In this document: piece by piece, positions 23,621 through 50,739 of the stretch
Layout: each line of letters begins with the position of its first letter
Position numbering within the stretch: the first letter of the stretch is position 1
Assembly (NCBI GenBank): GCA_002269645.1
Contig: NIVC01001778.1
Coordinates: 124,001-188,000 of the forward strand
Direction of reading: 5' to 3'
From: Macrostomum lignano
Taxonomy: Eukaryota
DNA length: 64,000 nucleotides
Program-made: the position numbers and the translations under genes
The notes under the pieces: generated by a model
Told to the model about the DNA's origin: nothing
Database searches by the model: none
The model's input: the letters and a program-made list of their open reading frames with translations, nothing else

Positions 23621-24134
23621 CGAATCAAAATAATTTCTGATTTTGCATGTCTCCACTCCAGACCTCGAGTCCAGTGCACCATGGCACCCCCACGGCTTCT
23701 TCTCTTCACACCGGATCTGCGAGTCTTCAAGCATCTTTCTTCCCGAATAGGTTTCCGGCCAACACAGTCTTTAATTTTGACCTCCCCTCAATGGCTACCA
23801 CCATTTTCAAGTGTGTCCGCGGTCCCAAAATGATTAAGGTGGGCCGGGATACTCGATTCTTTCTAGTCGTGAATAAAAACTGACAGAGCTGAGACTACTA
23901 TGTTTTATGGCCTACTCAATGCCGAGAGAGAGAAATGGGCAGGGCAAGATTCTACAACGCAACGTGCTTACAATTGGCTGCGTGAAGTGTTTTAAATTGC
24001 GTATTGAAATCTGGCAGTAGCATGGGATTTTTCTTCAAGCACTGAGGAGGAAGTGGCTTGAGTTAGACTTCTATTGTGGGATTGATTTTCCCTGCTTGCA
24101 CCTTGCCCCGGGATCAGAAGGGGAATCGTTGGAG

Positions 24135-24720
24135 ATTAAGAGTTGGAGACACTGAGAGTTGGGTGGATAGGAGACTGAGAGTTGGGTAGATAGAAGAGAC
24201 TGAGAGTTGGGTAAATAGGAGACTGAGATTTGGGTAGATAGGAGACTGAGAGTTGGGTAGATAGCAGACTGAGAGTTGGGTAGATAGGAGACTGAGAGTT
24301 GGGTAGATAGGAGACTGAGAGTTGGGTAGATAGGAGACTGAGAATAGGGTAGATAGGAGACTGAGAGTTGGGTAGATAGGAGACTGAGAGTTGGGTAGAT
24401 AGGAGACTGAGAGTTGGGTAGATAGGAGACTGGGAGTTGGGTAGATAGGAGACTGGGAGTTGGGTAGATAGGAGACTGGGAGTTGGGTAGATAGGAGACT
24501 GAGAGTTGGGTAGATAGGAGACTGAGAGTTGGGTAGATAGGAGACTGGGAGTTGGGTAGATAGGAGACTGAGAGTTGGGTAGATAGGAGACTGGGAGTTT
24601 GGTAGATAGCAGACTGAGAATTGGGTAGATAGGAGACTGGGAGTTGGGTAGATAGGAGACTGAGTTGGTAGATAGAATACTGAGGGTTGGGTAGACAGGA
24701 GACTGAGAATCGGGTAGATA
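24135..24720. repeat. 23-bp minisatellite abutting the retrotransposon; same family as 49550-50155 (inverted)
   Basis: Unit GGGTAGATAGGAGACTGAGAGTT. Confidence 0.95.
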
Positions 24721-24721
24721 T

Positions 24722-25422
24722 TGTTGTGTCTCGGCCTAATGGCCGCTGGACGGGTCAAGGTTCGGGCCCTCCCCGCCTGAGACACCCCTGTCCCAGCCCT
24801 CACCCCGGCTATTCCTACCCTGTCTCGCTCGGTTCGGCGAGAGTTCGCCTGACCGAACACCCTGGGATCGGCGAGAGTTCACCGTTCCCAGGTCCCTGCA
24901 GATCCCGGCCCCACGCGGCAACCCAGAAGAACGAAAGCTCGAGCTCACCTCCTCTTGATATATCGAGTTACTAACGAAGCGTTTATTGGCCCGAAGCAGT
25001 TATTGGCACGCGAAGGCAGAGGTACGCCGATGAACGCAAAAACAGTAAGAACGAAGCGGACACCAATAGAGAGCCAACGTGGAGCGCAGCCCGCTCAGGG
25101 CTAGCATTTAAATAATACACAAAAAAGGGGGAGGGGTGGGGCAGAATGGAGACGGCGAGCCAAACCCTGGGGCCCAGCCGGCTTATCAGCCAGCCAGCCA
25201 ATACGAGCAGCCCCAGGGTGAGGCGGGCAACGAGGGAGGGGGGGGGCACCCAGATTGGACAGAGATTGGGCCGGGGGCTGGGTGCAAAGGGCTAGGCCAG
25301 GGTTGAGACTTACGCCTCTCACAAACCCTGGCCCGGGCGCGAGACGGGGGACGGGGCGGGGTGGCATGAAAACTGAAAACAAAAGTACGAGTACATACAC
25401 ACTGGAAGGGCGCAGCCCAACA
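24722..25422 (-). repeat. 3' LTR (701 bp)
   Basis: By eye it differs from the 5' LTR by one substitution (GAGCTC vs GATCTC) and one G in a homopolymer; TATTTAAA at about 25107-25114 and AATAAA at 24982-24987 on the minus strand. Confidence 0.97.
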
Positions 25423-25434
25423 TCCTCCCCCTCC
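25423..25434 (-). promoter_or_regulatory. Polypurine tract (plus-strand primer)
   Basis: GGAGGGGGAGGA immediately 5' of the 3' LTR on the minus strand. Confidence 0.92.
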
Positions 25435-25662
25435 ACGAAAAAGAAGAGGAGAAAGGGGATGTCAAGCAAAAAGCAACGCATGAACAAGCAAGTCTGAAAA
25501 AAAGTTAATTCAAAAAACGACGGCCGAAAAATAACAGAAAAACTTTGACGCGACGCGTGGATATCGCCGGCATTACAAAAAACAAAAACGAAAAAATGAA
25601 AACGGGACACAAACTATTGCGTACGCAAAAATTGAAAACGGGCTTAAGAACGCAATTCTACT

Positions 25663-27267
25663 CTACAATCGGCCAAAAAATCTACTACAGTTGGTCGCAA
25701 ACAGTCGAGTCCAGTACCTGCGATCACATTCACTGTCCGCTAGGGCTTCCGGCACGAACTTGATGGCTGTCGGGTCCTTGGGGTCTCCACCAAACGGTGC
25801 GGCCGATGTCACTAGCAGGCGCTGCCGCGGGAGATGCTTAGCCCGTTGGACCGCTCGCGGGGATCCTCGGCACCGAGCGGACACCTCGAAGAAGACCCCG
25901 TGGCACTTGCTCACCAGCGCGGCCTCGACGGCCTCCGGCAAGTCCAGGTCCTCGGCCAGCATGACGCTCATCGCTTGAAACTCCGGCTGCCGGAGGAATC
26001 CTAGGGCGACCGCCCAGGCAGGTTCGCCGCCTTCAACTCGGAACAAAACCGGCAGGCCGAACTCCTTGGCAAGCAAGAACTGCTCCATCGCCGCCGTTAA
26101 CTGGTCCTGGCGCTGCGACCTCTCAGCGTCCCAATTGAGCTCGACTTCGCCGACCGCCACGACACGCGGCCAGCTACCCGCTAGAAATCGTCGTACATCG
26201 TCTCGCAGCGATGGCCACCACGGTGCAGCACTGGCCTTCAGGCCCAGGGCGAACACGATCCGTCGGTCTTGCAGCAGTGGTCGGACAACGGGACATTCTA
26301 GACGCAGGCAGTACAGCGAGTTTACAGCCGCTAGACATCGACGCACGCCACGAAGGTCCTCGGGCTGAATCGACCGGCCCAGCCTCGTTAGGTATGCCTT
26401 TGCATCGACGAGACGCTTAGCCGAGCTGACCTTGCGCTGATTCGGGTCGTCACGGGGGCAGACCTCCTGGACCGTGTCGGCCGGTCGTACTTGCTCGGGG
26501 TCGACACCCGTTAACTCTTCGGTCGCCAAGTCGCGCTGGGCCGTCAGCGGAGTCTGCGAAAGGTGCGGCCCGTCACTCCCCTCCTCCGGGCGCCGCGCGA
26601 GGCCAGGATCCACTAAGAGAGACAGACCCCGGAGCCTCCCCAACAAGGGACCCCCCAACTCACACAGCTCAAAACCCCGCACAGCCAACAACACGCACTC
26701 AAACGCCGCCTGCAGCACCGAAGGCGGGACCCTCCGACACCTCCCGGAGCCACCACCAGAACCTCTCTTCCGCCCATACTGATTGCACAGAAACGACACA
26801 GACACTGCTAAGAATCTAGACAACTGCTCAGGCACACTCACACCAGCCCCATCAAGAAACCTCGCCACCTCCTGAACCACCAGGCAAGCTCCTTCACTAT
26901 CCCCAGCCCTCAACCGCGCCAGCAGCGCACCCCTCAGCCGCCTACACTCAGCAAGCGCAGCCGGAGCCAATAACTCGGCTGGGATCTCCGCGTGAACTGG
27001 AGCTTCCCCTGCGGCGCTTCCCTTAAGACTAGCCAAAGCTAACCTGACCTGCTCGGGCAACTCAACGTCAGGGGGAGGATTGAAAAAGTAGGCGTACTTT
27101 AACACCCCTTGACACGCTGCCTCTCCAACCCGATCGTATACTTCCCGAAACACTGGGTCAGATAAAACGCACATCGCCATCACGTCTCGCTGAGACTCCG
27201 GAGACCCTACCTCGGCAGGACAGACGCGGGGCCGCTTTGAGTACAGACGATACACACGCTGCCTCAA
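25663..27267 (-). CDS. Retrotransposon ORF3 main frame: C-terminal part of a J-like domain, helical linker and degenerate TatD-family (amidohydrolase TIM-barrel) domain
   Basis: 534-codon open frame. TatD motifs in order: LVDAKAYL (DxHxH), VFALGLKA (GxHP), VVAVGEVELNW (VAIGEIGLDY), LAKEFGLPVLFR (LAxELxLPVxIH), GVFFEVSA, HLPRQRLLVTSAAPF (IPLDRLLLETDAPY), ATNCSRFF (NAxRLF). N-terminal AMCVLSDPVFREVYDRVGEAA resembles J-domain helix III-IV [21 protein letters not shown]. Confidence 0.8.
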   Translation of the reverse strand: MRQRVYRLYSKRPRVCPAEVGSPESQRDVMAMCVLSDPVFREVYDRVGEAACQGVLKYAYFFNPPPDVELPEQVRLALASLKGSAAGEAPVHAEIPAELLAPAALAECRRLRGALLARLRAGDSEGACLVVQEVARFLDGAGVSVPEQLSRFLAVSVSFLCNQYGRKRGSGGGSGRCRRVPPSVLQAAFECVLLAVRGFELCELGGPLLGRLRGLSLLVDPGLARRPEEGSDGPHLSQTPLTAQRDLATEELTGVDPEQVRPADTVQEVCPRDDPNQRKVSSAKRLVDAKAYLTRLGRSIQPEDLRGVRRCLAAVNSLYCLRLECPVVRPLLQDRRIVFALGLKASAAPWWPSLRDDVRRFLAGSWPRVVAVGEVELNWDAERSQRQDQLTAAMEQFLLAKEFGLPVLFRVEGGEPAWAVALGFLRQPEFQAMSVMLAEDLDLPEAVEAALVSKCHGVFFEVSARCRGSPRAVQRAKHLPRQRLLVTSAAPFGGDPKDPTAIKFVPEALADSECDRRYWTRLFATNCSRFFGRL

Positions 27268-27340
27268 TCTCCGCAGAGTTAGCAGTCCGACCCACGCCTA
27301 ACACGCCATACAAATCAGTCGGTGTCGTTGGCGACGACAT
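27257..27340 (-). CDS. Probable true N-terminus of ORF3 (J-domain helices I-II), one base out of frame with the main ORF
   Basis: ACCATG at 27340; MSSPTTPTDLYGVLGVGRTANSAEIEAA aligns to DnaJ DYYEILGVSKTAEEREIRKA; the main ORF3 frame has a TAG at 27298-27300, so the join needs a frame change at GCG-T-GTG-TAT (27259-27250). Confidence 0.65.
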
Positions 27341-27677
27341 GGTCCTCCTGCAATGATGACATTTAAACCCAATCACTACCTATGCCTTGCGGACTAGCAA
27401 CTGTGACCCTGACCTGACCCATCCTATGACATGTTTATTTTACAATACGATTGAGAACGCTTCTTGCCTAGCATACTTTGTAATTTTAATACATTTAATG
27501 TTTTTTACGTGCTTTCCATGCGTTCCATTTTATGATTTTTTTGTGCTTTGGGGTTGTATCATTTTTTTCATTTTAGGTTATTTTAGGCTTTCTACCATAG
27601 ACAACAGCGTGGAGGCATTAATACAAGTGCATATTAAAAATCAATTTATGACGACCGCCTTGTGAGCCCACTGCGAA

Positions 27678-30600
27678 TTAACGATACAATACCGGATTCC
27701 CGTAATACGCTGGGGGCACACCCCGACGCTCGCGCAGTCTGCGCGGAGACACGGCTGGCGCCGCTGGAGCCACCGGTGCGCATGGCGCAACTGGCGTTCC
27801 CGGCCCTACTATCCCATGCCGAGGCCCAACGGCAACTGGTGGCACCACATACGAGTAAAACTCCTCCTCCTCCTCAAGTTCCGGCTCTTTAGTCGCCGGC
27901 CCCGCGGGCTCCTGTCTGCACCCTGCCGGCTCAGGCGGATGCGCCGACCGGCGCTGCACTGCCGTATGCCTATTCATCAACCTGAACTGCTCAGGCCGCT
28001 CGGGTACTTTTCGCAAATTATTATAATGCACTATTTTGCTCTTTCCCCTATTGGCGTGCTTTACCCGGTAATTCAAATCGGATATCTTCTCTAACACCTT
28101 CGCCGGCCCCTTCCAATTGCAATGGAACTTGGCTGCCTCCCCTGCCTGCAGCGCAGGCGAGTATTCTAGGACGGCATCCCCAACTTCTATGGCCGGGCCT
28201 CGCACCCTTGAGTCGTACAGCACTTTCTGTTTCCTCTGGTACTGCTGCAGGTTGGTCCGCACCTGCGAATGAGCCTCAGCCAGACTATTACCTAATGACT
28301 GAACATACGCCGGAGCACTGGCAGGAATGGACTCAGGCAAGGTTCCAATGTCCACTGGAAGCCGCATCTCCCTGGCGTACAGCATGTAGTACGGGGTGTA
28401 CCCCGTGCCTCTGTGAACGCTGCTACGGTACGCCATGAGAGACGGGTGGATCAGATCCTCCCAGTCTCCTTCGCCCACCGACTCACTCATCCTGCACTTG
28501 ATCATTGACTTCAACGTCTTATTGAAACTCTCAGCCTGACCATCAGCCATCGGGTGATAGGAGGACGTTCTGCATTTCTTAACGGCAAGCAACCGACACA
28601 ACTGCTTCATCAAAGCCGACTCAAAATTGGTGCCCTTATCGGTGACTAGAAATTCAGGACAACCAAAGTGCGCAATCCAGTGATCAAAAATCGCTCGCGC
28701 CACCGTCGGGGCTCGCTGATTGGACAAGGGCACCGCCACCGGCCACTTAGTAAAAGAATCCTGGATTGTCAGCACGAATCGATTGCCACCTCTGGACTTG
28801 GGCAACGGCCCGACAATGTCACTCATGATCCTCTGGAAAGCTCCTTCCGAGCAGATTGGCTGCAAAGGCGCCCGGTTGCTGCGCCCAGGCTTCGCCTTCG
28901 CACAGTGGACACAGCTCCGGCAATACTCTTCCACGGAACGACTCAGCCCCGGCCACCAGTATCTCGCCTTCACTTTCTCTTGTGTCTTCCTAACCCCAAG
29001 GTGCCCTCCTGCAACCCCATCATGAAGCTCACTGAGCACTTTCGGCAGCAAAGCCGGCGGCAGCAAGATCTTTTTCTGGCACCCACTCCCGGGACTCTGA
29101 AAATACAACAGATCAGACTCTACTCTTATCAGCTGCCGTTGTGCCCACAGCACACGCTCCTCCCACGACATCACTCTAGGCGCACTGGGGTTCGAACCCG
29201 GGTCCAGGGCATAGGAGCGGACAGCTGCAAGCTTCTTCTCGGCCACTTGCGCCTGCTGGACTTCCTTCGAAGACAGCCCACTGCCAAACACCGCGTTCAC
29301 TACTGGCACATTCTCGCTAAACTGGCAGCTAGGGCAGCTCTCATGGCCAGCGTGTTTTCGGTACTTGCGAGACAGCGAATCAGCGTTGCCGTGCTCCTTG
29401 CCTGGCCTGTGAATGATCTCAAAGTCGAAGTTCTGGAGCGACTCAAGCCACCTTGCGCACTGACCCTCTACGTCCTTCAGACTGGCTAGCCACTGCAAAG
29501 CTTTGTGGTCTGAACGAACAGTGAACTTTCTACCTAACAAATAGTACCTATACTTTTTGACGAAGTGCACGACGGCAAGCAACTCTAACCTGGTGGTGCA
29601 ATAATTTTTCTCCGCCGCATGAATCATCCTAGACCCGTAAGCGATCACCTTCTCACGGCCATCTGCTTGACGCTGTGACAGGACGGCTCCCAGCCCGACG
29701 CGCGAACTGGCGTCCGTGTCGAGGATGAACTCCCCGGCACCAGGCGAAAAATCCGGGAATGCCATCACATTCGGTGAACACAAAGCGTCTTTCAGCCTGC
29801 AAAACGAACTCTCCTCTTCACTACCCCACTCAAACTTCACTCCGTCTGCGGTTAACCTATACAGCGGCGCTGCAATCTCCGAAAACTGCGGGATAAATGA
29901 CTGATAGTAGGCGCACGTACCCAGGAATGCCTGCACCTTCTTGGCGCTACATGGCCTCGGCCAATTCTGGATCTCCTCGCACTTGCTCGGGTCCGTTGCG
30001 ATCCCCTCCTGAGAGACGATGTGGCCCAGAAACTTCACCCGCTCTGCGAGGAACACACACTTGGCGGGCTTCAGCTTGACATTGGCATCCCTCAGGCACT
30101 GGAAAACATGCTTCAATCGCTCGAGATGCTGACCCACCGACTTGGCGAACACGACTATATCGTCAAAGTACACCAGGCACTCCTTCCAGTTAACCTCAGA
30201 CAGGGCCATAGACATTAGCCTGGCGAACGTAGCGGGAGCATTGCGCAAGCCAAAACTCATGCACTTCCAGGCGAACTGACCCCTGTTGGGTACCACGAAC
30301 GCCGTTTTCAACTGGTCCTTCGGCTCAATCGGGCACTGATGATAGCCGGAGGCCAGATCCATCGTCGAGAAAACACAGTTCCCTCCTAGCGCATCAAGCG
30401 TCTCGTCCATCCGCGGCGGTGGGTAAGGATCTGGCACTGTGACCTCGTTAAGGCGCCGATAGTCTAGACACAACCTCAAGCTACCGTCGGCCTTTTTAAC
30501 CGGCACGATCGGGCTCGCCCACGGAGAGTAGCAGGGATAGATGCGATCCTGCTGCAACAACTCATCAACCTGCTTATCAATTTCCTCCTTCCAGCGCGGT

Positions 30601-31676
30601 GGAATCCTACGCGCGGGCTGACTTACTGGCTTGGCGTTGCCGGTGTCAATCTCATGCGCCATCAAGTGTGACTGTCCCAACTCCGAGCTATCCCTGGCAA
30701 AGACATCACGATTCCGAGCCATCAGGCGCTCAAACTCGTGCTTCTCATCGCCCGTCAGGCCACATCCTCCCCACTCCTTGACATCGCTGAGGGGGTTCCA
30801 GTCGTCTCGGACACTCTCCACCGAGTTCACCTGCCACCCAGCTGGCTGCTGGGCCGCCACTGGGGAGAACCAACCAATTCGGCTTCCCTTCCTTAATGAC
30901 AGACTGCATCCTGACGTGTTCAACACCCTGACAGCCAAGCGACCGTCCCCGTCAGGCATCTGTACCGATCTGGCCACCATCTGCTCGTTACTCACTCTCC
31001 TCTCAGACTCCACAATGCCTAGGAACTGAACCCCAGAGGGAACCCTTCTCTGCAACCTGACGTGCACCACCTTCTCTTGACCTGCATTGAACTGCTCAGG
31101 CTGACTCAGCACCAGACGGCAAAGACGCGGCTTATCTGCTGATAAGCGAAACGGATACACACAGGATGCAGTCTGCAAGCAATTCCTAGCAAAGTCAATC
31201 GCCATCCCGTGTCTCACGAAAAAGTCAGTGCCCAGAATACATGCCACAGCCAGTTCCTCGACCACAGCGAACTCGTGCAAAAACTCGGTGTCCCCAACAG
31301 AAAACTTCATCGTCACCATTCCATGTACAGCAATCGGTTCCCCATTGGCAGCGAAAACGGAAAAATTCGGCAAATTCGGCGATAAGTCAATGTCGGCTTT
31401 TCTAGACTTCAGGAAACGGTTGCTTAACAACGACACGGTGGCCCCGCTGTCCAGCAGACATGCAATCGGGGGCCCAAACCTAAACTGTGCATCCACATAG
31501 CCCAGTCCCTGCCGACTCAGCACACTCTGGGACAAGGCCGCGGCCCCCGATGCACCCGGATTCACTGACGCTGGGGCCCGGACGGGTGCCCCGGCCGAGC
31601 CCCCAATCCGTTTCCCGAACCCGACTGGTCCCACCGACGATAGCAGCGGTTGCGCATGTGCCCTGACTGGCCACAC
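27678..31676 (-). CDS. pol: Gypsy pol polyprotein (protease, reverse transcriptase, RNase H, integrase), expressed by -1 frameshift from gag
   Basis: LLDSGATVSLL (protease), LCLDYRRLN and YFDDIVVF (RT), ILDTDAS/ELLAVV/SDHKAL (RNase H), HDGVAGGHLG...CVHC zinc finger, DIVGP/TDKG/ESFN (DDE integrase), WKGP (GPY/F); 1332 codons uninterrupted. Confidence 0.98.
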   Translation of the reverse strand: MWPVRAHAQPLLSSVGPVGFGKRIGGSAGAPVRAPASVNPGASGAAALSQSVLSRQGLGYVDAQFRFGPPIACLLDSGATVSLLSNRFLKSRKADIDLSPNLPNFSVFAANGEPIAVHGMVTMKFSVGDTEFLHEFAVVEELAVACILGTDFFVRHGMAIDFARNCLQTASCVYPFRLSADKPRLCRLVLSQPEQFNAGQEKVVHVRLQRRVPSGVQFLGIVESERRVSNEQMVARSVQMPDGDGRLAVRVLNTSGCSLSLRKGSRIGWFSPVAAQQPAGWQVNSVESVRDDWNPLSDVKEWGGCGLTGDEKHEFERLMARNRDVFARDSSELGQSHLMAHEIDTGNAKPVSQPARRIPPRWKEEIDKQVDELLQQDRIYPCYSPWASPIVPVKKADGSLRLCLDYRRLNEVTVPDPYPPPRMDETLDALGGNCVFSTMDLASGYHQCPIEPKDQLKTAFVVPNRGQFAWKCMSFGLRNAPATFARLMSMALSEVNWKECLVYFDDIVVFAKSVGQHLERLKHVFQCLRDANVKLKPAKCVFLAERVKFLGHIVSQEGIATDPSKCEEIQNWPRPCSAKKVQAFLGTCAYYQSFIPQFSEIAAPLYRLTADGVKFEWGSEEESSFCRLKDALCSPNVMAFPDFSPGAGEFILDTDASSRVGLGAVLSQRQADGREKVIAYGSRMIHAAEKNYCTTRLELLAVVHFVKKYRYYLLGRKFTVRSDHKALQWLASLKDVEGQCARWLESLQNFDFEIIHRPGKEHGNADSLSRKYRKHAGHESCPSCQFSENVPVVNAVFGSGLSSKEVQQAQVAEKKLAAVRSYALDPGSNPSAPRVMSWEERVLWAQRQLIRVESDLLYFQSPGSGCQKKILLPPALLPKVLSELHDGVAGGHLGVRKTQEKVKARYWWPGLSRSVEEYCRSCVHCAKAKPGRSNRAPLQPICSEGAFQRIMSDIVGPLPKSRGGNRFVLTIQDSFTKWPVAVPLSNQRAPTVARAIFDHWIAHFGCPEFLVTDKGTNFESALMKQLCRLLAVKKCRTSSYHPMADGQAESFNKTLKSMIKCRMSESVGEGDWEDLIHPSLMAYRSSVHRGTGYTPYYMLYAREMRLPVDIGTLPESIPASAPAYVQSLGNSLAEAHSQVRTNLQQYQRKQKVLYDSRVRGPAIEVGDAVLEYSPALQAGEAAKFHCNWKGPAKVLEKISDLNYRVKHANRGKSKIVHYNNLRKVPERPEQFRLMNRHTAVQRRSAHPPEPAGCRQEPAGPATKEPELEEEEEFYSYVVPPVAVGPRHGIVGPGTPVAPCAPVAPAAPAVSPRRLRERRGVPPAYYGNPVLYR
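31552..31616 (-). promoter_or_regulatory. Programmed -1 ribosomal frameshift signal: slippery G_GGA_AAC plus H-type pseudoknot
   Basis: Heptamer 31616-31610 in gag frame; 6-nt spacer; stem 1 GGGGCTCGG/CCGGGCCCC; stem 2 GCACCCG/CGGGTGC; pol is in the -1 frame. Confidence 0.85.
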
Positions 31677-32542
31677 TCCCGGCAGACCACTGCATTACGG
31701 CACCGAGCCGTAGTATGCCCTGTCTGCAGGCACCGACCACACTGCCTCTGCTGCTGACTCTGCTCAGGGGCTCGATGCTGCAAGCTCACTTTTGGCTGCT
31801 CAGACCTTGCTGTCGCCATCGGCGCAGTGGGCGCTGCAGCACTTGCTTTTAGCTGAGCCACTTCCGCTTTCAGAGTTGCTATCTCGGCGGCTGCCCTGGA
31901 CTCCTGGCTGTTGCCAGCCGCTGCGGCCTGACCCCCCACCATGTGCACAGCTCGCTTACCCTCGGGCTCCATCAGAGCCAACGATGCCCTCACTTGACGC
32001 ACCCGCCTAATAGCGTCCTGGAGCGTCTCTGGCGCTTGCAGCAGCACGCTCTCCAGCACCCGGGCTGGCACCCGAATCCCCTTCAAAAACCTGTCTTTCA
32101 CCAACTCTTCTCGCTGGGCCGCTGGCAGCATTGGGTACGATTTTCTCATAAGCTCCTTGAGCACGTCTGCATATTCTTCAATGGGCTCGCCATCTTTCTG
32201 ATTCCTACTCTGGAACTCGGTCTTGTAATCTTGAGCAGTCCTATTCTCATCAAACCTAGCTTCTAGCTGCTCAACAAACTCATCATACGGCAAATCATCG
32301 GCCAACTCAAGATTCGCAACAGCCTTAAAAGCAGTATTAAAGTCAAGCAGACTGAGCAGCGCCTGCTTGCGCTGATCCCCTAGAATATGAGCCGCCTCAC
32401 AATACCCTGTGAATTGTTGCATCCAAAGGGCAAAGTCCTGTGTGGGCACGTACTTATTTGGCCTCGGCACCCGCTGTGCCACATTAAGTTCGTTTTGCAG
32501 ACGCGCCGTCAGGGCGTCAATCAGATCGTCTAAATTGGCCAT
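31562..32542 (-). CDS. gag: Gypsy gag (326 aa from GCCATGG at 32542)
   Basis: Retrotransposon-gag-like region (WMQQF...YDEFVEQLEARF...RNQKDGEPIEEY...LVKDRFLKG) and two zinc knuckles CGRCLQTGHTTARC and CRECGQSGHMRNRC. Confidence 0.95.
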   Translation of the reverse strand: MANLDDLIDALTARLQNELNVAQRVPRPNKYVPTQDFALWMQQFTGYCEAAHILGDQRKQALLSLLDFNTAFKAVANLELADDLPYDEFVEQLEARFDENRTAQDYKTEFQSRNQKDGEPIEEYADVLKELMRKSYPMLPAAQREELVKDRFLKGIRVPARVLESVLLQAPETLQDAIRRVRQVRASLALMEPEGKRAVHMVGGQAAAAGNSQESRAAAEIATLKAEVAQLKASAAAPTAPMATARSEQPKVSLQHRAPEQSQQQRQCGRCLQTGHTTARCRNAVVCRECGQSGHMRNRCYRRWDQSGSGNGLGARPGHPSGPQRQ

Positions 32543-32646
32543 GGCTACAAAAGCACAGAGACAACCGAAGCAAACAACACACAAATAAACTAGGCAACAC
32601 ACACAACCCTAAACACACGGCAGGACAGCAGGGGAGAGGACCGCTG

Positions 32647-32664
32647 ATCCTGGTCACGGCACCA
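32647..32664 (-). promoter_or_regulatory. Primer-binding site complementary to the 3' end of tRNA-His
   Basis: TGGTGCCGTGACCAGGAT two nt after the 5' LTR; its complement ATCCTGGTCACGGCA-CCA is the 3' end of invertebrate tRNA-His(GUG) as recalled. Confidence 0.85.
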
Positions 32665-32666
32665 CT

Positions 32667-33368
32667 TGTTGTGTCTCGGCCTAATGGCCGCTGGACGGGT
32701 CAAGGTTCGGGCCCTCCCCGCCTGAGACACCCCTGTCCCAGCCCTCACCCCGGCTATTCCTACCCTGTCTCGCTCGGTTCGGCGAGAGTTCGCCTGACCG
32801 AACACCCTGGGATCGGCGAGAGTTCACCGTTCCCAGGTCCCTGCAGATCCCGGCCCCACGCGGCAACCCAGAAGAACGAAAGCTCGATCTCACCTCCTCT
32901 TGATATATCGAGTTACTAACGAAGCGTTTATTGGCCCGAAGCAGTTATTGGCACGCGAAGGCAGAGGTACGCCGATGAACGCAAAAACAGTAAGAACGAA
33001 GCGGACACCAATAGAGAGCCAACGTGGAGCGCAGCCCGCTCAGGGCTAGCATTTAAATAATACACAAAAAAGGGGGAGGGGTGGGGCAGAATGGAGACGG
33101 CGAGCCAAACCCTGGGGCCCAGCCGGCTTATCAGCCAGCCAGCCAATACGAGCAGCCCCAGGGTGAGGCGGGCAACGAGGGAGGGGGGGGGGCACCCAGA
33201 TTGGACAGAGATTGGGCCGGGGGCTGGGTGCAAAGGGCTAGGCCAGGGTTGAGACTTACGCCTCTCACAAACCCTGGCCCGGGCGCGAGACGGGGGACGG
33301 GGCGGGGTGGCATGAAAACTGAAAACAAAAGTACGAGTACATACACACTGGAAGGGCGCAGCCCAACA
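32667..33368 (-). repeat. 5' LTR (702 bp)
   Basis: Near-identical to 24722-25422; followed on the minus strand by the PBS. Confidence 0.97.
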
Positions 33369-33994
33369 ATATAGTAGTGATACAGTTGAGTAGATTTCAG
33401 GCACTTCTCAGTCTATAAAGAGTGTCGGATATGCAATGAAACGCAAGCTAAACTTAAACGCACTCAATTAACCGTGGCTGGCCATAAATAAAGCTTCTAA
33501 AACCTTGAGCATCGCAGCGGGTATTCGCTAAAGCGCACTGCGACAGAGGCACTCAAATTGACTTTGCATAAAATAAATTGATTTGGCGAACAATTTTCAC
33601 AAAACTTCAACTAGTTTAGGCCTCGCCTTCTTTAATTGTTTTGTTATCTATTATACTCATAATATAACTACTAAAGTCAGAATTGACCAGACAGTCCCCA
33701 TCTCCGCTTGAGGTCCAATTAAAGAAAACGATAGCTAATTATAAAAATGTTGGCAATGAATGCTTATCATTTAATCCTATTCATTTAGGGATTTTAAGTC
33801 ATGCCCCATTATTGCAGGTGCCTCCTCGGTGGGCGGGAATCAGAACGAAGAGTTAAAAGCTCTTATCCAATTATGGAATTAGATGTTCTTAAATTCTAAA
33901 GTATTCGACACCCACACGCACACAGATGCAACTTTAATAATCGCTTTGTAAATTGAAAATACTCGAAAGAAACTAGAGGGAGCATCCAGGATTT

Positions 33995-36188: not shown

Positions 36189-36855
36189 ATGTCAACTGAG
36201 CCCGACTCTGCCGACGAGCGACCCGCATCGTCTGCTTCAGCGCATCATCAGCAAAAGCAACAACACCAGCAACACCAGCAGCTGCCACCGCCGCCGCTGC
36301 TGCAAGCTGCCAGCGCGTCGCCTTCTTTGCCATCGTTTCTCGCCGTGAGAGCCGCTGCAGCAGCGGCCGCGGCGGCAGCCTCCAGCGCCTCATCAACTGC
36401 CAGCGGAGCCGCAGCTTGTGAGCCCGGCGCCGTCCTGAACTCGCCGCATCACCTGGCGCAGCATCCGCATTTCTTCTTGCCACCGCCTGTCGGAGCCTTC
36501 AGGCCGCCGCCGCCAGGATTTCTGGCTGCTGCCGCCGCTGCTGCCGCTGCCGCTGGCGGTCCGCCGCCCCATCTGCACCCGCTGCCGCACCCGCCGCACC
36601 CGCCGCAGCAGCAGCAACAGCAGCACCAGCAGCAGCAACAGCAGCACCAGCAGCACCAGCAGCAGCATCACCAGCAGCAGAGCTTTCCACATCAGCCTCC
36701 TCCGACGCCGCACCCGGCGTTTCTACCGCCGCACGTCTCTGCCGCAACGGCCGATTTGATCTACAAGGCCACGGCGGCTGGGGCGGATCCCAGGCAGTTC
36801 CTGCCGGCTTCGCTCTTCTTCCGGGAGGAACCAAAGCCAAATCACAGCTATATTG
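36189..36855 (+). CDS. foxQ2: FoxQ2-type forkhead transcription factor, exon 1 (polyQ/A/P/H N-terminus to EEPKPNHSYIG)
   Basis: ATG 36189; ends FREEPKPNHSYI-G at donor GTGAGT 36856 (phase 1). Confidence 0.88.
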
Positions 36856-36874
36856 GTGAGTCATAGTTCTAACA

Positions 36875-38862: not shown

Positions 38863-39027
38863 GCCTGATCGGCATGGCCATCCTCAGCTCCAAGGAGAGG
38901 AAGATGGTGCTCAGCGACATCTACCAGTGGATTCTGGACAACTATCCCTACTTCCGCACCAGAGGTCCCGGCTGGAGAAACTCGATTCGGCACAATCTGT
39001 CGCTAAATGACTGCTTCGTCAAAGTTG
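38863..39027 (+). CDS. foxQ2: FoxQ2-type forkhead transcription factor, exon 2 (forkhead core)
   Basis: Acceptor TTCCCAG; [55 protein letters not shown]; donor GTGAGT 39028. Confidence 0.93.
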
Positions 39028-39525
39028 GTGAGTACCCTACTCAGCGCTGAGCTGCAATAGGACACAGCAGCGCTGTTAATTTGAGCAGTTTTTGCACAGA
39101 CGCCAAGATTTCCAGTTTTGATCTGATTATTAAACCACTCGGTGCCCGCATAATCTTCTCTTTACAAGAATTGAGTAAGAGCAATTATGGGGCTTCGGAG
39201 CTCGAAGGACTCAAACTGGAGTTTATTTGGCAACAATGGGAGCTGGCCCTACTAAACACTCGTTTGGAGGGGCGCCATAAAACTGCCGTGTAATTCTAAG
39301 CCAAGCCAACAACGGAAAAAGCAGAGCCACGATGTGGCGTGAAAGCAAAGTGGATGCCACCTACCAGTGCTCGGAGGACTCCGCCCCTTTTCCACTAAGC
39401 CAAGCTTGCCTTCAACAACTAATAAGTTTGCAATTTGGCCCGGTGGGTGGTCGGCGGCAGGGGGCTGAGTTTGAGCTTGCCTGAGTCTGCTTGGGTTCTG
39501 CCTTCCTAACTTGCTGTCTGGGCTG

Positions 39526-49549: not shown

Positions 49550-50155
49550 CTGCCTACCCAACTCTAGGTCTCCTGTCTACCCAACTCTCGGTCTTCTGTC
49601 TACCAAACTCTCAGTCTCCTATCTACCCAACTCTCAGTCTCCTATCTACCCAACTCTCAGTCTCCTATCTACCCAACTCTCAGTCTCCTGTCTACCACCC
49701 AACTCTCAGTCTCCTATCTACCCAACTCTCAGTCTCCTATCTACCCAACTCTCAGTCTCCTATCTACCCAACTCTCAGTCTCCTATCTACCAACTCTCAG
49801 TCTCCTATCTACCCAACTCTCAGTCTGCTATCTACCCGACTCTCAGTCTCCTATCTACCCAACCCTCGGTCTTCTGTCTACCAAACTCTCAGTCTCCTAT
49901 CTACCCAACTCTCAGTCTCCTATCTACCCAACTCTCAGTCTCCTATCTACCCAACTCTCAGTCTCCTATCTACCCAACTCTCAGTCTCCTGTCTACCACC
50001 CAACTCTCAGTCTCCTATCTACCCAACTCTCAGTCTCCTATCTACCCAACTCTCAGTCTCCTATCTACCCAACTCTCAGTCTGCTATCTACCCAACTCTC
50101 AGTCTCCTATCTACCCAACTCTCAGTCTCCTATCTATCCAACTCTCAGTCTCCCA
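49550..50155. repeat. 23-bp minisatellite, reverse complement of the 24135-24720 array
   Basis: Unit AACTCTCAGTCTCCTATCTACCC. Confidence 0.95.
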
Positions 50156-50739
50156 TCAGCCTTGAGCATTCGGCAGTTTACTCACTCGGAGTCTCCGACA
50201 ACGCGAATCCGAAATTCGACTCCGCCCCAGGCCAGCCGCCTTCGCAATCAACCGAGAGATCGGATCAGCCCTGATCAAAGCCCAACCCCTCCTCCCCTAA
50301 GCGACACGATTTGGGAAATATTTCCCCAATCGTCTTCTTCAAGACCTGCCGCGTGTCACGCGCTACTCGGGGGGTTTCTACTCAACAGAAAAAATCAGGA
50401 CCCCAGGCTAATTATCTCACAGCCTTCTCCCTCATCTTTGCCGGGGTTGAAAAAATCTGACAATGAAGTGAGGAAGCGAGCATGGGGAATTTTCGACGTT
50501 TTCAGCGCGCTGAGACTCGGACAGACAGACAGACTGGTGGAGGACAGATTTGGAGATCGAGCGTGTTGAGAAAGATTAGCGCAGGCCCTAATTAGCTTTG
50601 TCGCCTATTAAAGCTGGGCGAGTTTTTATTTGGTTCGAAGCTCAAAGTTATGACCGGCTTAAACTATGGCTGACACTCTCGCCTGCTCTCTGCTCCCTCA
50701 CCTGATTCCTGTGCGCCGCAGTCTCTGCTTTCCCCGTGC

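Follow-up and report, generated by a model that had tools for sequence, protein, structure and literature searches.

The window, a stretch of 64,000 nucleotides from Macrostomum lignano, contains at positions 24722-33368 a complete and young Ty3/Gypsy LTR retrotransposon with open gag and pol frames. The assignment is based on LTRs with TG...CA ends, a target-site duplication (TSD), a primer-binding site (PBS) and a polypurine tract (PPT), together with a gag that is followed by PR-RT-RH-INT (Table 1). Both LTRs differ at two positions (24943 and 25237), by one substitution and one 1-bp indel; the substitution affects the +6 position of the donor-like site. A slippery heptamer is located in the gag-pol overlap at 31610-31616. 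The primer is putatively tRNA-His; tRNA genes were not found in the 64-kb window. Between pol and the 3' LTR, which is the usual accessory position, a further reading frame occurs, in the following termed ORF3.

Table 1. Positions of the retrotransposon features in the window.
Feature	Position	Strand	Remarks
Target-site duplication, left and right	24718..24721, 33369-33372		4 bp, ATAT
3' LTR	24722..25422	minus	701 bp, TG...CA
Polypurine tract	25423..25434	minus	adjoins 3' LTR
Pseudo-TatD (beta/alpha)8 barrel	25663..26430	minus	profile, Pfam, Atlas, fold model
ORF3 main frame	25663..27267	minus	534 codons and stop; frame open from 27297
Helix-5 patch	25978..26019	minus	barrel residues 138-151; 13/14 identical with P0004, for the most part not found in canonical TatD
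In-frame segment with GT..AG ends	26554..26841	minus	288 nt, skipped by both gene models
Middle all-helical region	26611..26994	minus	ORF3 residues ~92-219
J-domain-like segment without HPD	27094..27316	minus	
Frame from ATG in good context at 27340	27158..27340	minus	first part of J-like segment; ends after 60 codons
Splice-acceptor-like site	27348..27380	minus	last intron base 27348, 7 nt before ATG
pol	27678..31676	minus	protease, RT, RNase H, integrase (PR-RT-RH-INT); no stop
gag	31562..32542	minus	capsid-like region and zinc knuckles; overlaps pol
Primer-binding site	32647..32664	minus	18 nt, 2 nt after 5' LTR
5' LTR	32667..33368	minus	702 bp; TATA-like 33059, AATAAA 32932, donor-like site 32893

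A tandem repeat array (24131-24720) directly adjoins the insertion site, and a related array that is inverted and ~91% identical lies 25 kb away (49554-50157). The plus strand carries a host forkhead gene of at least two exons (36189-36866, presumably FoxQ2-like, and ~38970-39150) with poly-Ala and poly-Gln tracts. The distance between the first listed ATG of this gene and the 5' LTR is 2.8 kb, and the LTR is directed away from it. Heat-shock control of the element was rejected, as the LTR gave no match to four HSE patterns. In five supplements of PMC12801592, which concern HSE-bearing M. lignano LTR families, two LTR motifs of the element were absent. PHROGs returned no family for three proteins and Rfam no match over the whole element, and a phage tblastn search gave five weak matches (~24%) to unannotated records. 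With the viral fold library one match at E<=0.001 was obtained, an uncharacterised Yasminevirus protein of 16% identity, which we take as no sign of a viral origin.

Architecture and predicted expression of ORF3

ORF3 comprises about 560 residues, arranged as an HPD-less J-like domain, a helical bundle, a linker and a pseudo-TatD domain. Similar to retroviral and errantiviral env genes, it is positioned after pol and predicted to be spliced, but it differs from them in that a membrane-length hydrophobic segment is absent (maximum 19-residue hydropathy 1.49). An env identity was ruled out for this reason. One N-glycosylation sequon is present.

In the copy of the window the J-like segment is split by a frame break near 27250-27260, caused by mutation or an assembly error, and the two halves score weakly against DnaJ models. 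In both database gene models, the M. lignano proteins P0002 and P0003, the segment lies in one frame. For P0003 the match to Pfam DnaJ (PF00226) covers positions 1-63 of 63 with E=0.0073 and 16.8 bits (cut-off 27.8), DNAJB13 is the best PDB match (E=1.6e-4) and many J-domains are found among the PDB matches. In comparison to J-domain proteins such as DNAJB13, DNAJB1 and DnaJ, the entire domain is matched but the HPD motif is missing, in the segment of the window as well as in P0003. The J-like domain is a probable homologue of these proteins and, judged by its sequence, a second, independently captured domain that has lost its signature. The original prediction for this locus, a TatD fold deprived of its catalytic residues, had placed the barrel correctly but missed this start of ORF3.

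The middle region is predicted to be helical, perhaps as a four-helix bundle, and could be assigned to no family. A single-sequence fold of ORF3 residues 1-279 reached a pLDDT of 45, and Atlas gave no usable match for residues 1-235. The structural matches of the 1-279 fold (best Z 8.7) were generic helical bundles at background level and were set aside. The 288-nt segment skipped by the gene models is probably coding, since it is in frame, free of stops (as were 122 of 2000 shuffles) and contains two predicted helices; possibly it acts as an optional intron. Within this segment a basic GRKRG stretch (ORF3 residues ~165-170, nt ~26760-26775) is observed, a possible nuclear localisation signal.

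The arrangement of donor, acceptor and AUG-free leader suggests that ORF3 is translated from a spliced mRNA. Both database gene models join an exon at the acceptor-like site at 27348. Within the 5' LTR and leader, a donor score of 7/9 is reached by the donor-like site at 32893 alone; across the element 20 of the 645 GT sites also score 7/9, so that donor strength is modest. The leader in front of the donor measures 159 nt. Upstream of the ORF3 start the pol-ORF3 spacer contains 12 ATGs, which would block scanning to this start. Expression via spliced messages is described as typical of ORF3s in PMC5408684. The spacer (27341-27677, minus strand) is AT-rich with an AATAAA at 27439; polyadenylation might alternatively take place here, or transcription start from an internal promoter.

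The TatD barrel and its active site

The pseudo-TatD domain represents the last 250 residues of the longer ORF3 and not a stand-alone gene; positions 25663-26412 (minus strand) comprise 249 sense codons and the stop codon, read in frame with the ORF 27267..25663. Barrel residues are numbered with nt 26430 as residue 1. As reference, 80 loci from one genome scan and two proteins were collected and reduced from 82 to 44 TatDs at <70% identity. Against the profile of these 44 canonical TatDs the domain scored 27.9 bits, compared to at most 1.8 bits in 1000 shuffles (314 reported) and −3.3 bits for the reversed sequence. Pfam TatD_DNase (PF01026) was matched with E=5.7e-6 and 26.3 bits by the domain and with 23.7 bits by whole ORF3, both below the gathering cut-off of 27. 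Atlas assigned a score of 0.93 with TatD in 30 of 30 matches, and the best PDB sequence match is a S. aureus YcfH-type TatD (E=7.4e-6). The segment 25663..26430 is a TatD-fold homologue that, by its motifs, is not a TatD nuclease.

With an identity to canonical TatD of ~20%, the domain retains 68 of 79 hydrophobic core columns (5 gaps; background 48%). Its frame was stop-free in none of 2000 nucleotide shuffles, and the other two sense frames contain 13 and 9 stops. The TatD fold as well as the preserved core over about 250 residues without a stop, both claimed originally, are borne out by these numbers. A fold model, which is biased as it was built on the canonical TatD alignment, shows eight strands with a pLDDT of 83. 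With this model, VIA returned TatD-type structures as the top 14 matches (Z 22.3-26.1, rmsd 2.5-3.1 Å, 232-246 residues); these matches are not independent of the homology for the same reason. A shadow ORF of an antisense gene was ruled out, as the antisense frames contain 8, 2 and 6 stops. Codon usage compared between ORF3 and pol lends no support to the coding frame (frame score 0.009 vs 0.064 in the +1 frame). A profile comparison of A1 with A2 was discarded as circular, A1 being contained in A2.

For the analysis of the active site the domain was aligned with the 43 canonical TatD rows of A2, a narrow set of class II proteins mostly from Bacilli. In these, eight of the nine site columns are invariant in 43/43 rows and the beta3 His is found in 39/43. 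The pseudo-TatD keeps one of the nine residues, the bridging Glu of the GE motif (G94-E95, nt 26148), which is also kept in P0002-P0004. The HxH of beta1 is replaced by K11-A-Y13 (nt 26400, 26394), which corresponds neither to HxH (class II) nor to (G/A)xN (class I) as these motifs are defined in PMC10085689. GxHP of beta3 reads G63-L-K65-A66, the beta5 His is exchanged for R131 (nt 26040) with E133 in place of the His+2 Arg, and ETD at beta8 has become T208-S-A210 (nt 25809-25803; A-S-G in P0004). K11, K65 and R131 thus occupy former His positions. No His at all is present in the beta6 segment V156-M-L-A-E-D161 (VMLAED). Depending on the register, the residue at the beta6 His position is L158, A159 (TATDN3 alignment) or E160, the latter from spacing judged by eye against TATDN2 in Fig S1B of PMC10085689; because of this ambiguity an acid may sit at the His position. 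The substitutions proposed motif by motif were all recovered in this alignment, and the GE glutamate is indeed the only site residue left. With TatD nucleases (E. coli TatD/YcfH/YjjV, human TATDN1-3, QatD) the domain shares the eight-stranded barrel, the motif order and the GE Glu. It differs from them by the change of 8/9 site residues, by its fusion behind J-like and helical domains and by being encoded in a retrotransposon.

Relatives of ORF3

Of 1.84 billion representatives, P0002 and P0003 came closest to ORF3. All six motifs are identical in both to those of the 25663..26430 copy, so that the substitutions recur in these two gene models (6/6 motifs). Matches of P0003 to the window extend beyond the element at either end, so that it represents this locus, or a duplicate of it, in another assembly. 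P0002 matches ORF3 alone with a different flank and is accordingly another insertion. Copies of ORF3 are retained at no fewer than two insertion sites and differ by up to three substitutions and one gap in 220 residues. The UniRef entries of P0002 and P0003 are chimeric gene models in which ORF3 is joined to unrelated flank, and their names (ribonuclease H; J domain-containing protein) conceal the retrotransposon origin.

Among the same representatives P0004 is the sole distant relative, a 166-aa fragment from a single 1208-nt contig that is 50% identical (81/163 positions) in a nearly gap-free alignment. The motifs of beta1 and beta3 lie outside this fragment. In the covered part the GE Glu is kept and an Arg stands at the beta5 His, whereas the His+2 Arg, the beta6 His and both ETD acids are gone. 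Site loss is therefore observed in three copies and in one distant relative; it is not private to the copy of the window, contrary to what would speak against the original claim, namely ligands kept by relatives and lost here alone. Since P0004, apart from the Glu, lacks each of the five site residues in its span, the loss is also old. Of the 81 residues common to P0004 and the pseudo-TatD, 50 occur in <10% of canonical TatDs, which speaks for a site-less TatD family under a constraint of its own, as far as one relative can indicate. The helix-5 patch is a candidate new binding surface; its permutation p is 0.035 with a window length chosen post hoc, and for a 20-residue window p is 0.41 and not significant.

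Word-indexed searches gave no further homologues: none for full ORF3 among 7999 candidates of 293-935 aa, P0004 alone for profile A1 among 8000 candidates of 91-447 aa and P0003 alone among 8000 candidates of 448-2000 aa. A close cellular parent of the pseudo-TatD was not found in these homologue searches. A bacterial-looking TatD homologue of 192 aa from ENA, P0007 (TIGR00010, 84.7 bits), has lost the site residues including the GE Glu; by its sequence we regard it as an independent pseudo-TatD, unrelated to the loss in ORF3.

Possible roles of ORF3

As the leading interpretation, which we propose tentatively and hold to be possible, the ORF3 protein is a CERV-like adaptor that acts on RNA or ribonucleoprotein of the element itself. 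It would be made from a subgenomic RNA in which the 5' LTR donor at 32893 is spliced to the acceptor at 27348. The barrel would lack catalytic metals, with Lys11, Lys65 and Arg131 at the former metal- or phosphate-binding His positions probably pairing with Glu95 and nearby acids and plugging the site. The adaptor could then help to export, protect or assemble the unspliced genomic RNA, like CERV for Cer1, by way of its basic beta1-beta3 half and the surface newly formed on helix 5. CERV of Cer1 is a spliced product of 517 aa with a GTPase-like domain devoid of catalytic residues and is required for genomic RNA export (PMC10309623), and Maelstrom is described as a dead nuclease turned RNA binder (PMC4408791). 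CERV and ORF3 are both multi-domain accessory proteins of ~500-560 aa with a C-terminal enzyme fold that lacks catalytic residues, the splicing of ORF3 being predicted. In contrast, their folds differ (GTPase-like and TatD) and homology between them was not detected; CERV shares exons with gag and its function is demonstrated, while ORF3 follows pol and its function is inferred. The barrel has a pI of 9.4. Its basic excess resides wholly in the first 89 residues (17 Arg/Lys, 7 Asp/Glu), with a high GC content inflating the Arg content, whereas the part shared with P0004 has a pI of 5.8. Nucleic-acid binding by the barrel is a conjecture, because the DNA-binding Arg of canonical TatDs (His+2) is missing and the half in common with P0004 is acidic.

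Reverse transcription necessarily passes through RNA:DNA hybrids. A host-directed decoy, the main competing reading and one that we consider unlikely, would use the barrel as mimic of a TATDN2-type nuclease to shield the RNA:DNA hybrids of the element or to titrate TATDN2 partners, and the J-like domain as mimic of a co-chaperone without Hsp70 activation. In line with this, TATDN2 is stated to degrade the RNA strand of R-loops (PMC10711561) and to be expressed in germ cells (PMC12709183). The best PDB match is of YcfH type, a label located near TATDN2 in the tree of Fig S1A of PMC10085689, with an uncertain placement taken from the text, and by eye the TATDN2 row of Fig S1B looks similar to the pseudo-TatD in the segments beta2-beta3 and beta6-beta7. 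The putative kinship to TATDN2 draws on this match and on the inspection by eye; the structural Z values differ little between the three TatD classes (22.3-26.1). The surface residues common to P0004 are moreover new and un-TatD-like, which fits mimicry poorly. Quite unlikely in our estimate is the wider reading that the LTR lineage built an accessory protein from an inactivated TATDN2-type R-loop nuclease and a DnaJB-type co-chaperone. Just as doubtful is its functional part, in which Lys and Arg would replace the barrel metals and the protein would bind element RNA or RNA:DNA hybrid and shield or export it in stem and germ cells. If true, it would constitute an element-encoded counter-measure to host hybrid surveillance.

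It is rather improbable that ORF3 is a passenger, that is, two captured host gene fragments which drift and are still open because the element family is young. The frame break in the J-like segment of this copy would agree with drift, and for bdelloid ORF3s PMC5408684 reports intragenomic evolution without significant departure from neutrality. The pseudo-TatD keeps 24 of 76 near-invariant columns, and retention of site residues (1/9) compared to the other columns (23/67) gives p=0.15. Set against 13 structural columns shared by every TatD class in Fig S1B of PMC10085689, 8 of them kept here, p is 0.025. The loss of site residues alone is hence weak evidence of selection. The concerted loss, which had been read as suggesting selection for a non-catalytic binding role, carries little weight by itself; the non-catalytic nature is likely, a binding role conjectural. 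Drift, however, could hardly reach ~20% identity while preserving 534 codons without a stop and the core columns, a 50% identical relative aligned nearly gap-free over 163 residues argues against it, and the searches yielded no close cellular parent. The pattern in P0004 is stronger evidence of constraint than the loss pattern. We consider it likely that the barrel is dead and maintained as an accessory protein.

Regarding catalysis, the sequence makes a non-catalytic pseudo-TatD likely. According to PMC4176340, E. coli TatD is inactivated by each of E91A, E201A and D203A; the equivalents of E201 and D203 are gone here, which amounts to two of three key acids. TATDN3 D218A shows a ~30-fold drop (PMC10085689). 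TATDN1 for the most part tolerated exchanges of single His residues or of Asp222, and both activities were reduced by a change of the GE Glu only (PMC10085689 and its Table S4); the sole residue kept, E95, corresponds to this Glu, the most damaging one to lose in TATDN1. This last point would favour a rewired enzyme, in which E95 with E97, E160, D161 or E182 as migrated ligands confers a weak or altered metal-dependent nuclease activity, or a barrel-mouth Lys acts on abasic sites. P0004 has the same residues at E95, E160, D161 and E182, and beta6 can be aligned in more than one register. Nevertheless, the changes at 8/9 site residues, three of them to cation-repelling Lys/Arg, and the mutants of the E. 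coli enzyme and TATDN3 make such an activity very improbable. Death of the barrel in a cellular gene before its capture, with P0004 as member of that cellular family, is hardly to be expected: P0004 offers no genomic context beyond its contig and P0007 shows that dead TatDs arise in cells, but the M. lignano matches are element copies only, in searches that can miss relatives.

The adaptor role preferred here would add to a small set of captured genes. Bdelloid LTR ORF3s encode a DEDDy exonuclease and a GDSL esterase with intact catalytic residues (PMC5408684), and for the AlkB captured by an orchid Gypsy element activity was demonstrated (PMC9289625). Like these, ORF3 is a captured enzyme gene that forms an extra ORF of an LTR element. 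Whereas the former keep their catalytic residues, both recognisable domains of ORF3 are degenerate. Active TatD has been co-opted in defence (PMC13434339). In literature searches, with Repbase and subscription papers outside their scope, we met no description of a TatD or J-domain from an LTR element. The parts of the M. lignano LTR paper PMC12801592 covered do not mention TatD and list DnaJ in the expression table only, and a lead in PMC6962438 was a gene label only. Within the literature searched (Repbase outside), ORF3 is a previously unremarked double-degenerate accessory ORF.

Few extra ORFs of env-less LTR elements have an established role, CERV and the orchid AlkB being among the few tested cases in the literature considered. 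Since the element is young and its host offers transgenesis and is amenable to RNAi, the role of ORF3 is directly testable. The pseudo-TatD would provide a natural metal-free TatD scaffold that separates binding from catalysis. With signatures erased and frame and core kept, the TatD- and J-derived ORF3 extends the range of sources from which accessory proteins arise. As targets of conflict it suggests two host processes, the surveillance of nucleic acids by TatD enzymes and chaperoning by Hsp70.
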